DNA of 64,000 nt from Gammaproteobacteria bacterium. Its GTDB lineage: Bacteria > Pseudomonadota > Gammaproteobacteria > PIWD01. Below are positions 20,603 through 24,023 of this stretch, in pieces. The notes under the pieces are model-generated. The model was not told where the DNA came from, searched no databases, and saw only the letters and a program-made list of their open reading frames with translations. The DNA is taken from assembly GCA_003354005.1 (NCBI GenBank), contig PIWD01000002.1, positions 594 to 64,593 of the forward strand. Reading direction: 5' to 3'. The translations under genes were made by a program, and so were the position numbers. Position 1 is the stretch's first letter; each line of letters starts with the position of its first letter.

Positions 20603-21418
20603 TCATAATATCATTAGACCGTGTTTTCTTAAAACGCTCTCCATTTTTTCACTTATCAGGTAATCAAATTCACGTTGTCGCACTATTTCCAGCATATCAC
20701 CCGCTTGTAGTGCACTGCTAGTCCAGCCATTAAATTGTGCTGGATGACACATCAGCAAACCACCCTTTGATAGTGAGGAGATAAATTGTTCAAATATTTT
20801 ATGGTAAGGTTTCTTGCTGTCAAAATGATAAATGCCTGCAAAAGATGTGTTGTGTGGTATTTCAAGTGATTCTAGCATGTGCTTAAAATGACGTGCACCA
20901 CTGTAAGCAATACATTGGGCTTTTAAGCGACTTAAGTAGTCTTGATGGTTATTGTGTATCTTCTGCCAGCTACAGCGGATATAAGGTGCTTGTTTCTGCT
21001 GGGTCAACTTTTTCTGATAAAAAGAAATGAGTTCATCACGAATTACGGGAAAATTTTGTATATGCTGGTGTCCATCTATAAAATCAGGCATCCTATTTAA
21101 TTGCTTAAGAAATAGTGTAATCTGTTGCTGCAGGGCGTCGTGAATTGCCTTGCGCGATAGTAAACGAAGATGACTACGAATAAGTAGTGATAGTAGCGAC
21201 ATTTTACTATGTGCTGGATAGCTAAGGTTAAAATGCAGACCAATGGCTGCTTTGCCAATAAAAGCTTTTAATCGTTGTGCATGCTCTGGCCAGAGTCTAC
21301 TGGTAACCATGCAACTGACTGCATTAATCCGCTTATGCTTTAATAATTGTAGAATACCGCTAGAAATAGCTTCATTTTGAGCATAATCATCTGCACATAT
21401 CGTAATCGATCGATTCAT
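20603..21418 (-). CDS. YdjC/ChbG-family carbohydrate deacetylase (LgmC-like)
   Basis: N-terminal ITICADDYA motif (the YdjC ADDFG-type motif), 271 aa, and co-oriented with ArnC-like and ArnT-like genes. Confidence 0.6.
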   Translation of the reverse strand: MNRSITICADDYAQNEAISSGILQLLKHKRINAVSCMVTSRLWPEHAQRLKAFIGKAAIGLHFNLSYPAHSKMSLLSLLIRSHLRLLSRKAIHDALQQQITLFLKQLNRMPDFIDGHQHIQNFPVIRDELISFYQKKLTQQKQAPYIRCSWQKIHNNHQDYLSRLKAQCIAYSGARHFKHMLESLEIPHNTSFAGIYHFDSKKPYHKIFEQFISSLSKGGLLMCHPAQFNGWTSSALQAGDMLEIVRQREFDYLISEKMESVLRKHGLMIL

Positions 21419-21423
21419 CCGCC

Positions 21424-22437
21424 CTACTCCCCGTTTAAACTAGAATCAAGTGCTGATTCAGTCCTCTCAATATCAAAGCCTAATTTCTGCTTTACGATAT
21501 AACGAGGTCGCTGTTTGACTTCATCGAAGATACGGCTAATGTATTCACCTAAAATACCAATAGACAACAGTTGTATGCCCCCAAGAAACATGACAGCTGT
21601 GATAATGGTTGCAAAACCTGGTACATCAACACCATATAGCAATGTTGCAACGATTATATAAATACCATACATTAAAGCAAGAAATGATATAAAAAAACCA
21701 ATAAATCCCCATACGCGTAATGGGACACTGGAAAAAGCTGTTAATCCAGTCAATGCCAATTCAGCCAATTGTGAAAACCGCCATTTACTCTTGCCTTCAA
21801 GGCGCAATTTTGGGGTATAAGGAATCCCAATATGGCTAAAGCCAACCCATGCGTATAAGCCTTTCATAAAGCGTCCACGTTCACCACATAAATTAAGAGC
21901 CTTAACAACACATTGATCTAACAAACGAAAATCACCAGCATGAGCTGGAATAGGAACCTGGGTCATAGTACGCATCAAGTGGTAAAATAGATGACCGAGT
22001 TGTCGCCTCAACCAAGATTGGTTATCTGAGTCATTTTGAATGCCATAAACCATATCGTAACCTTGCTGCCATCGTTCTAAAAATTTTGGAACTAGTGCTA
22101 GTGGATGTTGAAAATCAGCGTCTATCAAAATAGTTACCTCACCCTTAGTAACCGATAAACCTGCACTTAGTGCCGCTTCTTTACCAAATCGACGGGATAA
22201 AATTAGAGCCTTAACCTGCCCACTTTCGTACTGCCCCCGTAAATTTTGAATAAAAAGACTCGTATGATCAGAACTACCATCATCTACTAAAATTATTTCA
22301 AAATAATCTGTCAACGTACTCAAACATTCAGTTAGTGCTTGAATAAATTGTTTGATACATAGCTCCTCGTTGTAACAAGGCACAATACAGCTTATAAAAA
22401 GTTGTCGGTTCGATAGCCGTTCTTCTCGTGTACGCAT
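21424..22437 (-). CDS. GT2-family polyprenyl-phosphate glycosyltransferase (ArnC / DPM1 / LgmA-like) with two C-terminal TM helices.
   Basis: A GT-A fold: IVPCYNEE, VDDGSSD, a DxD motif (IDADFQHP), and a hydrophobic C-terminus. Confidence 0.75.
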   Translation of the reverse strand: MRTREERLSNRQLFISCIVPCYNEELCIKQFIQALTECLSTLTDYFEIILVDDGSSDHTSLFIQNLRGQYESGQVKALILSRRFGKEAALSAGLSVTKGEVTILIDADFQHPLALVPKFLERWQQGYDMVYGIQNDSDNQSWLRRQLGHLFYHLMRTMTQVPIPAHAGDFRLLDQCVVKALNLCGERGRFMKGLYAWVGFSHIGIPYTPKLRLEGKSKWRFSQLAELALTGLTAFSSVPLRVWGFIGFFISFLALMYGIYIIVATLLYGVDVPGFATIITAVMFLGGIQLLSIGILGEYISRIFDEVKQRPRYIVKQKLGFDIERTESALDSSLNGE

Positions 22438-22445
22438 GTATCAAC

Positions 22446-24023
22446 TCATTTTTTTCTCGGTGCCAGTAAAGCAACGTTAATGGTAATTACAGGGGGGGGT
22501 GATGTCAATCCAGGCATGACCTTTGAAAATCGATGTGCTCCCAAAAACTCCAAATTAGGGAAATCTCTTAATACTCGTATTGGCAACATGACTGCCATTT
22601 TTTCTGGTAACCACCATACAAAAATAGCCCCATCCTCCCGTAGCTGATACTCATTAATCCAGGCACTTTGATCGGTGTCCCAATCAAAGTATGGTACGGG
22701 GTGTTCTTCGGCATATACGGTTAAATTAGCAGCTAAGTAATGTGAACCAGCAACATAGTGCCACGGTTGCTTGTAACGCTCATCCCATATATGACTTAAC
22801 TCATTTGCAATTGCTTTCCCAGGGAAATAAGCATCGGAACTGAAATGATTTAGAAATCTCGGAGCAAAATAAAGATAGCTGTAGCGACCTAGGAGAAATA
22901 CGCTAAATATAAGCAGTAATAATATCCCAAACCAGCGCATACGCCACTTTTCTAGCCGATCTGGCAAATAGCTGATAAAGAACAGCCCCAGCCAAGAAAA
23001 ATAAGGTGTACACCATTTACTATATAAATAACTACCACTAAGTATTGAGTAAAGCAAGGTTAGTGCTAACGGCCCAAAGGTAATAGCCAATAAGAAATAA
23101 TGATCAAAAGGATTTTGATGATGCCTGTATTTCCATGCACCACGCTTAACAAATAGGGGAATCAGAAGAATAAAAAAACCAAGTGTTGCTAAGAGCTGCG
23201 TTAATAATAACTTTAATGGATAATAAAAATGATCAGTAATAAGACTCGTATTACGATGCAATAAACCAACGGTGCTCTGTAAGGCATATCGAATTTCTGG
23301 GAAGTCATGTCTAAATGACCAATGGATGTGAGGAGCAAGTAAGACCAGAACGATCCCCGTTGCAAGGTAGATGCCTGAATAAGAAAAACTGCGCCGTCCC
23401 TGCTTTGTGCCGAATATAATCAGTGCAAATACAATCAATAGAATTATTGATTGTAACTTAGTCAATATCGTAAGCCCAACCAAGATGCCGAAACAGACCC
23501 ATTTAAATAGGGAACGTTGCTGTATAGCCCAGTATAAGTATAGACAAGCTAAAGCCCAAATTGGGTTCATCAAGGTGGTGGGATTAAATTTTGGCGTAAT
23601 TAAATTGTAATAAGCAATACCTTCAAGTAATGCAACACTGAGTAAAGCTTTTGTTGGTGTGAGTAAATCTTTAGCTAATCGCCATACTGCCCAGAAACTC
23701 AAAATAACAGAGAGTTGTGCTAGAAAATAAAATGCACTATCATGCCCCAGAGTATCACGTATAGGCATCCACAACGCCGTTATCCAAGCTGCTAATGGTG
23801 GGTGTTTATCATATCCCCACTGCCACTGTAGCCCCCAAGCGATGCTTTCTATCGTATCAAAAGGCAGATTATTGCGTATTAAAGAAGGCAGCAGAGTCCA
23901 CGCAAGCGTATGCAGTCCACATAAGAAGCAAAAATAACGACTTGCTTGCCGTTTCGTTAGCACAAATTCTAACCTCAACCGATTAACCAGATCAAACACC
24001 CTGGGATCGTAGCACATTTTCAT
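22446..24023 (-). CDS. GT-C family polytopic glycosyltransferase (ArnT / PMT-like; LgmB-like)
   Basis: 525 aa with about 12 TM segments. The first periplasmic loop carries FDTIESIAWG...YDKHPPL, resembling the ArnT/PMT D-E...DKPPL motif. Confidence 0.65.
   Translation of the reverse strand: MKMCYDPRVFDLVNRLRLEFVLTKRQASRYFCFLCGLHTLAWTLLPSLIRNNLPFDTIESIAWGLQWQWGYDKHPPLAAWITALWMPIRDTLGHDSAFYFLAQLSVILSFWAVWRLAKDLLTPTKALLSVALLEGIAYYNLITPKFNPTTLMNPIWALACLYLYWAIQQRSLFKWVCFGILVGLTILTKLQSIILLIVFALIIFGTKQGRRSFSYSGIYLATGIVLVLLAPHIHWSFRHDFPEIRYALQSTVGLLHRNTSLITDHFYYPLKLLLTQLLATLGFFILLIPLFVKRGAWKYRHHQNPFDHYFLLAITFGPLALTLLYSILSGSYLYSKWCTPYFSWLGLFFISYLPDRLEKWRMRWFGILLLLIFSVFLLGRYSYLYFAPRFLNHFSSDAYFPGKAIANELSHIWDERYKQPWHYVAGSHYLAANLTVYAEEHPVPYFDWDTDQSAWINEYQLREDGAIFVWWLPEKMAVMLPIRVLRDFPNLEFLGAHRFSKVMPGLTSPPPVITINVALLAPRKK

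Follow-up and report, generated by a model that had tools for sequence, protein, structure and literature searches.

Hexosamine on lipid A alters resistance to cationic peptides and polymyxin as well as TLR4 signalling, as is known from Bordetella, Francisella and Acinetobacter. Experimental precedents for this chemistry are the FlmF2/NaxD/FlmK proteins of Francisella (PMC2233673, PMC11279074) and the LgmABC proteins of Bordetella (PMC4993483, PMC11401268). In the latter genus a GT2 glycosyltransferase, a GT-C glycosyltransferase and a deacetylase are needed for hexosamine modification, and lgmD is dispensable (PMC4993483). LgmB has been described as arnT (PMC11895810), and FlmK as an orthologue of arnT/pmrK (PMC2233673, PMC4402001). 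Acinetobacter baumannii has no arn operon; there the YdjC deacetylase NaxD feeds galactosamine to lipid A, and the enzymes transporting and attaching the sugar are still unidentified (PMC12330716, PMC9431647). The more general three-component glycosylation by GtrA, GtrB and GtrC has been reviewed (PMC11127046, PMC8035078). In the present study we analysed a 64-kb stretch of gammaproteobacterial DNA (contig PIWD01000002.1, positions 594 to 64,593; hereafter the window), in which three genes at 20603-24023 encode a GT-C transferase, a GT2 transferase and a YdjC-family deacetylase, and compared this locus with the systems above.

We consider it probable, with moderate confidence, that the three genes are a single operon for extracytoplasmic glycosylation which delivers a hexosamine with a free amino group. 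Of interest at this locus is that the donor-making half of a known pathway, with its NaxD-like deacetylase, is coupled to a widespread and unstudied clade of GT-C proteins.

Gene layout and the predicted donor-making enzymes

According to the open reading frame (ORF) listing, three co-directional ORFs on the minus strand fill positions 20603-24023 exactly, with gaps of 8 nt between the GT-C and GT2 genes and 5 nt between the GT2 and YdjC genes. Read from the upstream end, the features are as follows.

24024-24122, minus strand: upstream intergenic region of 99 nt, the presumed promoter region of the operon, as read from the sequence
22446-24023, minus strand: membrane glycosyltransferase of GT-C fold, 525 aa (Pfam PMT_2), of a PMT_2 clade that appears distinct from ArnT; predicted to transfer a lipid-linked sugar at the periplasmic face
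21424-22437, minus strand: GT2 polyprenyl-phosphate glycosyltransferase of GtrB type, 337 aa (Pfam Glycos_transf_2); predicted synthase of undecaprenyl phosphate-linked N-acetylhexosamine (Und-P-HexNAc)
20603-21418, minus strand: soluble YdjC-family deacetylase, 271 aa (Pfam YdjC); predicted to convert Und-P-HexNAc to undecaprenyl phosphate-linked hexosamine (Und-P-HexN), a role like that of NaxD and LgmC

The Pfam scores of the three proteins are far above chance, with 102 bits for PMT_2 (cutoff 26.1), 90 bits for Glycos_transf_2 and 138 bits for YdjC over the full profile. In a scan for consensus promoters and terminators, promoter-like sites were no commoner than in shuffled sequences, hence no promoter was defined, and the scan did not delimit the transcription unit.

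The best match of the GT2 protein in the PDB was GtrB sll0501 of Synechocystis (5EKP), with 291 bits over residues 9-322, whereas ArnC structures scored 136-152 bits, the 152 bits belonging to 9HWJ. In the alignment with GtrB the DAD and GDFRL motifs coincide, and a C-terminal hydrophobic region of the GT2 protein spans residues 237-300. In NCBIfam the protein stayed under every equivalog cutoff, ArnC included (165 bits against 529), and PgfS gave 249 bits against a cutoff of 500. The identity to E. coli ArnC is 30%, and two related clusters, L010 and L011, have GT2 genes 54-55% identical to that of the window (55% for L011). Based on the PDB scores, the NCBIfam cutoffs, the ArnC identity and the C-terminal hydrophobic region we classify the protein, at the sequence level, as a GtrB-type synthase of undecaprenyl phosphate-linked sugar and not as ArnC. 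Its sugar is predicted to be an N-acetylhexosamine (HexNAc), for which N-acetylglucosamine (GlcNAc) and N-acetylgalactosamine (GalNAc) look the same from sequence.

The YdjC protein has no hydrophobic segment and should thus be soluble. We found about 800 homologues, the closest of them 38-45% identical, and those with names came from Gammaproteobacteria or from Legionellales metagenome-assembled genomes. In an alignment with 32 relatives D10, D11, H62, D115, H117, H225, R247 and E250 are invariant and H119 is nearly so, and the Asp/His catalytic residues of the family are intact in the window protein.

An earlier note, made from this DNA by reading the sequence, had described three co-oriented genes in the order GT-C, GT2 and YdjC, with spacers of 6-9 nt. 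The ORF listing and Pfam confirm the order and the families, including a full-length YdjC deacetylase, and the packing is as tight as was described, only with the gaps given above. Calling the GT2 protein ArnC-like named the right class of polyprenyl-phosphate glycosyltransferases; the label itself is loose, as the protein is much closer to GtrB.

The GT-C protein and its conserved neighbours

An AlphaFold2 model of the GT-C protein had a predicted local distance difference test (pLDDT) score of 91.8. Searching the PDB with this model in Foldseek gave ArnT as the best match (5F15/5EZM; E value 1.6e-7, template modelling (TM) score 0.55, 12-13% identity), followed by STT3, PglB and ALG9 with TM scores of 0.40-0.46, so that the margin of ArnT is modest. 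The model thus points to a GT-C fold for which ArnT is the nearest solved structure. When a profile of 93 window-type sequences was set against one of 7 ArnT-type sequences in HHalign, the probability was 95% and the E value 3.3e-8 over window residues 29-233. Judged by model and profile alignment, the likeness to ArnT is real at a deeper level, with the GT-C protein as a remote homologue in its fold and its N-terminal 200 or so residues.

For the functional residues we used Cupriavidus metallidurans ArnT, in which D55/R58, E84/K85, D158/K203, R270 and Y345 were compared; their roles are summarised in PMC8306577. In the HHalign alignment K189, the lysine of an LTK motif, is conserved opposite K203, and a K-x-P-P loop region is common to both proteins (K73-H74-P75-P76 opposite E84-K85-P86-P87). 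The invariant D56 falls near ArnT E61 and not D55, in a region of low alignment confidence, and the alignment does not extend to the region of R270 and Y345. Among 93 relatives the invariant residues are W42, D56, W63, K73, H74, P75 and G465. It should be noted that pLDDT is low over the first 20 or so residues, to which no homologue extends, hence translation may in fact start downstream of 24023.

In an exhaustive search among 1.84 billion cluster representatives, 2,130 proteins reached E≤1e-30, and the best 150 of these all scored above 429 bits. Going by these sequences, we assign the protein to a large PMT_2 clade distinct from ArnT. Endozoicomonas provided the only named members found in the protein searches, and a further search with the 93-sequence alignment returned essentially the same relatives and no new named taxa. 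A scan of genome contigs gave distant relatives only, in Endozoicomonas, Kiritimatiellota and Verrucomicrobiota, and a tblastn search of plasmids gave only paralogues of about 21-30% identity in Pantoea, Proteus and Variovorax. On the conjugative Pantoea ananatis plasmid NZ_CP099537.1 (L094:2918-6464) a distant paralogue annotated as GT39, about 22% identical, adjoins genes for a PAP2 phosphatase, Bor and an Ail/Lom outer-membrane protein; this may be a plasmid-borne islet for envelope remodelling.

To describe the gene context we collected 90 loci with window-type GT-C relatives and scored the 34 of them that are flanked on either side by 3 kb or more for partner genes. GT2, GtrA and YdjC were all present at seven of these loci, GtrA and YdjC at one, GT2 and GtrA at three, GT2 only at five, and no partner at 18; a YdjC gene thus lay within 6 kb of the GT-C gene in 8/34. 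When 18 related loci were compared all against all, only the GT-C, GT2, GtrA and YdjC families recurred together, which is why we regard these four as a conserved module. GtrA was present in 16 of the 18, and the window carries the module without it.

The closest relatives of the YdjC protein, 38-42% identical to it, lead to a different transferase. In five of the six contexts examined (L011, JGI 3300045391, L096, L097 and L098) the YdjC gene stands beside a GT2 gene and a true ArnT-type GT-C gene, whose product has Pfam PMT, PMT_2 and, in most cases, Arnt_C; GtrA is found in three of the five. The sixth (L012) has a window-type GT-C gene beside it. YdjC homologues therefore adjoin GT-C genes in all six contexts, and a further 12 loci have them inside the four-gene module. 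With the YdjC relatives linked to ArnT and the L011 GT2 55% identical to ours, the donor-making genes look orthologous across the clusters. Compared at the protein level, the donor-making half of the window operon appears orthologous to that of the ArnT-linked clusters, and a different GT-C clade seems to have taken the place of the transferase.

Proposed pathway, its acceptor and rival explanations

We infer a pathway of four steps, and with it which sugar is used, how the reactions follow one another, that there is a flippase and, most of all, what the acceptor is, including the lipid A that the earlier note had named. On the cytoplasmic side the GT2 protein of GtrB type would move HexNAc (GlcNAc or GalNAc) from a uridine diphosphate (UDP)-sugar to undecaprenyl phosphate, and the soluble YdjC deacetylase would turn the resulting Und-P-HexNAc into Und-P-HexN. 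The lipid-linked amino sugar would then be flipped to the periplasmic face, a step at which most related clusters offer a GtrA-family gene. Here the GT-C protein would pass the hexosamine to an acceptor in the envelope, most likely lipopolysaccharide (LPS) at its lipid A phosphates or inner core, and the negative charge of the surface would drop.

In the donor pathway leading to Und-P-HexN we have good confidence. That lipid A or the inner core is the acceptor we put at roughly even odds. LPS is favoured because ArnT is the nearest fold and because ArnT-linked clusters have the donor genes in common with the window; on the other hand, with a GT-C clade that is distinct and that occurs alongside ArnT in locus L014, some other acceptor is quite possible. 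Further, we tentatively suggest, with rather low confidence, that the window-type GT-C proteins may be an uncharacterised family of hexosamine transferases, only remotely related to ArnT, which use the Und-P-HexN made by NaxD/LgmC-like and FlmF2/LgmA-like enzymes at an LPS site other than that of the ArnT type; this site might be the second lipid A phosphate or the 3-deoxy-D-manno-oct-2-ulosonic acid (Kdo)/inner core region.

A number of observations weigh against the reading of the locus as a system that transfers hexosamine to LPS, and most of them concern the transferase. A single-sequence phmmer search of the GT-C protein against the PDB gave no match at E≤1, and a profile of 38 family sequences gave none at E≤10. 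BLASTP against E. coli ArnT returned 26.9 bits only, and the profile of 93 window-type sequences scored -13.7 bits on the same protein. Pfam finds PMT_2 only, with neither a PMT nor an Arnt_C domain, and NCBIfam assigned no family. As positive controls, the ArnT-type GT-C proteins of the YdjC clusters L011 and L014 gave 113-148 bits against E. coli ArnT, and that of L011 gave 203 bits against C. metallidurans ArnT (5EZM). By sequence, we place the window protein outside the ArnT family. In the HHalign alignment, moreover, ArnT E84/K85 are replaced by K73/H74, and D158 is not conserved, with T148 in its place. The searches turned up no characterised member of the GT-C clade. The 18 well-flanked relatives that stand without partners, and the many distant ones paired with GT2 only, mean that the clade as a whole is not tied to hexosamine. 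A flippase gene was not detected in the window, where a GtrA profile built from the related loci gave a best E value of 0.84 against the six-frame translation; GtrA could be encoded outside the 64 kb. Finally, at the metagenomic locus L014:3345-7539 a YdjC gene stands directly between two GT-C genes, one of ArnT type (577 aa, minus strand) and one of window type (508 aa). As both GT-C types flank a single YdjC gene, the two transferases are suggested to have different, non-redundant targets, and one Und-P-HexN donor would then serve both.

The earlier note had taken the GT-C protein as ArnT-like and the three genes as exactly the enzyme trio of Bordetella Lgm. The first claim holds for the fold and as a remote relationship, and it breaks down at the family level. 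The Lgm-like enzyme logic is supported by the conserved neighbourhood; the exact trio overstates the match, because the GT-C protein belongs, by its sequence, to a different PMT_2 clade and is only a remote homologue of ArnT, not of the ArnT/LgmB type.

The position of the protein outside the ArnT family also bears on the question of what is being decorated. It is conceivable, though we think it rather unlikely, that the same Und-P-HexN donor is made and that the GT-C protein passes its sugar to something other than lipid A, such as O-antigen or outer core, capsule or a periplasmic glycan, or protein. The locus would then be, with the same rather low likelihood, a Gtr-type three-component system to which a deacetylation step has been added. 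The GtrB type of the GT2 protein fits this well, as does GtrA, which is found with the module at 16 related loci and completes the classical three-component architecture; the true ArnT beside the same YdjC gene in L014 suggests a different target for the window type, and distant members of the clade in Kiritimatiellota and Verrucomicrobiota pair with GT2 alone. Pulling towards lipid A are the ArnT fold as the nearest solved one and the YdjC and GT2 proteins, whose nearest counterparts belong to ArnT-linked clusters, and in the 18 loci genes for polysaccharide or O-antigen do not recur around the module.

We find it very improbable that the adjacency of the genes is incidental, with the YdjC protein acting as a cytoplasmic deacetylase of chito-oligosaccharides (ChbG-like) or as a hopanoid-associated, HpnK-like enzyme and the glycosyltransferases moving an unmodified hexose. 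The PDB matches of the YdjC protein are indeed ChbG-type proteins and NCBIfam detects weak similarity to both families, but the scores of 42 bits for ChbG and 29 bits for HpnK are far under the cutoffs of 227 and 233 bits. Together with the conserved gene context, that is the YdjC homologues beside GT-C genes in the six contexts and the 12 further module loci, these scores led us to reject a ChbG or HpnK role; only 5 nt separate the YdjC and GT2 genes, and no chitobiose or hopanoid genes lie nearby. A classical system for modification of lipid A with 4-amino-4-deoxy-L-arabinose (Ara4N) has next to no probability. The identity of the GT2 protein to E. coli ArnC speaks in its favour, but its NCBIfam score is far from the ArnC equivalog cutoff, and the YdjC deacetylase occupies the place of the ArnD deformylase. 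No homologue of ArnA, ArnB, ArnD, ArnE, ArnF or ArnT was found in the 64-kb window, and with the arn genes absent we rejected the Ara4N pathway for it; the earlier argument from the lack of arnA, arnB and arnD nearby thus holds across the whole window.

The window and comparison with known systems

Within the window, kdsD, kdsC, lptC and lptB lie at 55978-58889 and kdsA at 60850-61698, from which we conclude that the organism makes Kdo-containing LPS and exports it, so that an LPS acceptor would be available. Beyond the 99-nt gap upstream of the operon there is a gene for an AddB-like nuclease on the same strand (TIGR03623, 695 bits). The downstream end adjoins an orphan ORF of 506 aa at 19013-20533 on the plus strand, convergent with the operon; its N-terminus is rich in Ser and Asn and it has a weak SET-domain match (E value 0.003, below the Pfam cutoff), so it is possibly a eukaryote-like methyltransferase effector. 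The window has a GC content of about 40%. Taken with several orphan ORFs and the weak SET-domain match beside the operon, this gives a faint hint of a Legionellales-like lifestyle. Ten other window proteins, all housekeeping, were singletons at 90% identity in a collection of 15 billion proteins, and the lineage therefore seems poorly sampled. Other features of the window are the following.

560-1798, plus strand: tyrosine recombinase of the phage-integrase family near the window start, possibly the edge of a mobile element
6653-7261, 7688-8368 and, on the minus strand, 28044-28748: sizeable ORFs with no Pfam family match
8474-10207, plus strand: fusion protein of 577 aa with many tetratricopeptide (TPR) repeats and a C-terminal S-adenosylmethionine (SAM)-methyltransferase domain
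13310-14659 and 35254-37233, minus strand: sizeable ORFs with no match in Pfam or NCBIfam
17144-18733, plus strand: unusual fusion protein that joins two glycine-transporter membrane domains to a solute-binding domain of periplasmic type (SBP_bac_3)
41284-42669, plus strand: GadC-like glutamate/gamma-aminobutyrate (GABA) antiporter, 395 bits, under the equivalog cutoff
43415-46397, plus strand: bifunctional mannose-1-phosphate guanylyltransferase/isomerase (561 bits) followed by a GT4-like glycosyltransferase of 503 aa, a surface-glycan locus separate from the operon
50441-52987, plus strand: protein of 848 aa, distantly like fimbrial ushers
54276-55835, minus strand: sizeable ORF with no NCBIfam match

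Returning to the reading of the three genes as an operon for supplying a hexosamine with a free amino group, we find the nearest parallel in gene order in naxD-flmF2-flmK of Francisella novicida, a gammaproteobacterial intracellular pathogen that the earlier note had not brought up. These genes (FTN_0544, which we take to be naxD, FTN_0545 and FTN_0546) follow the same chemical logic and put galactosamine onto the 1-phosphate of lipid A. As in the window, there are three adjacent genes of the same classes, with a YdjC protein acting on undecaprenyl phosphate-linked GalNAc, a GT2 synthase of undecaprenyl phosphate-linked sugar and a GT-C transferase (PMC2233673, PMC11279074). The difference lies in the transferase, where FlmK, going by its description, is an arnT/pmrK orthologue, whereas the window protein is not detectably ArnT-like by ordinary search.

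In Bordetella, lgmA-lgmB-lgmC(-lgmD) put glucosamine onto both lipid A phosphates. We take LgmC to be of YdjC type and LgmD to be GtrA-like, and the order GT2-GtrA-ArnT-YdjC is presumably the architecture of lgm. A fourth gene of the GtrA family, making a four-gene module, is likewise carried by many relatives of the window cluster; the window differs in having no fourth gene and in a transferase from another PMT_2 clade than LgmB, described as arnT. Of the parts that the Lgm and Flm/NaxD systems share, the window has a GT2 protein with a C-terminal hydrophobic region, in the role of LgmA and FlmF2, and an adjacent YdjC deacetylase with intact active-site residues, in the role of NaxD and LgmC. 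The third part, a transferase orthologous to ArnT, as LgmB and FlmK are by description, is not what the window GT-C protein is. Among the hits of the large protein searches there were no LgmA/B/C, FlmF2/NaxD/FlmK or Acinetobacter proteins.

With ArnT itself (GT83) the GT-C protein has in common the fold, homologous N-terminal residues (about 200), the LTK lysine and the x-K-x-P-P loop; it differs in being about 50 residues shorter, in lacking Arnt_C and in an identity of only 12-13%. To our knowledge it is also unrelated in sequence to the serotype-converting Gtr transferases.

If the GT-C clade acts on LPS, the enzymes modifying lipid A or core would extend beyond ArnT. The likeness to Acinetobacter lies in a NaxD-like gene that stands with a non-ArnT transferase, and if the clade is indeed a separate family of hexosamine transferases acting on LPS, which we suggest with rather low confidence, it would be a candidate for the enzyme attaching galactosamine to lipid A in arn-less bacteria such as A. 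baumannii. If it acts on another glycan, the locus would be a new flavour of three-component glycosylation which installs a cationic sugar.

By analogy, then, the window system would work like Flm/Nax and Lgm, but its transferase lies outside ArnT orthology and it lacks a gene of GtrA type. It also fits the general scheme of three-component glycosylation, in that the operon joins a GtrB-like GT2 protein (5EKP, 291 bits) with a GT-C protein, and it departs from that scheme in carrying no GtrA in the window and in the YdjC deacetylation step which it adds.

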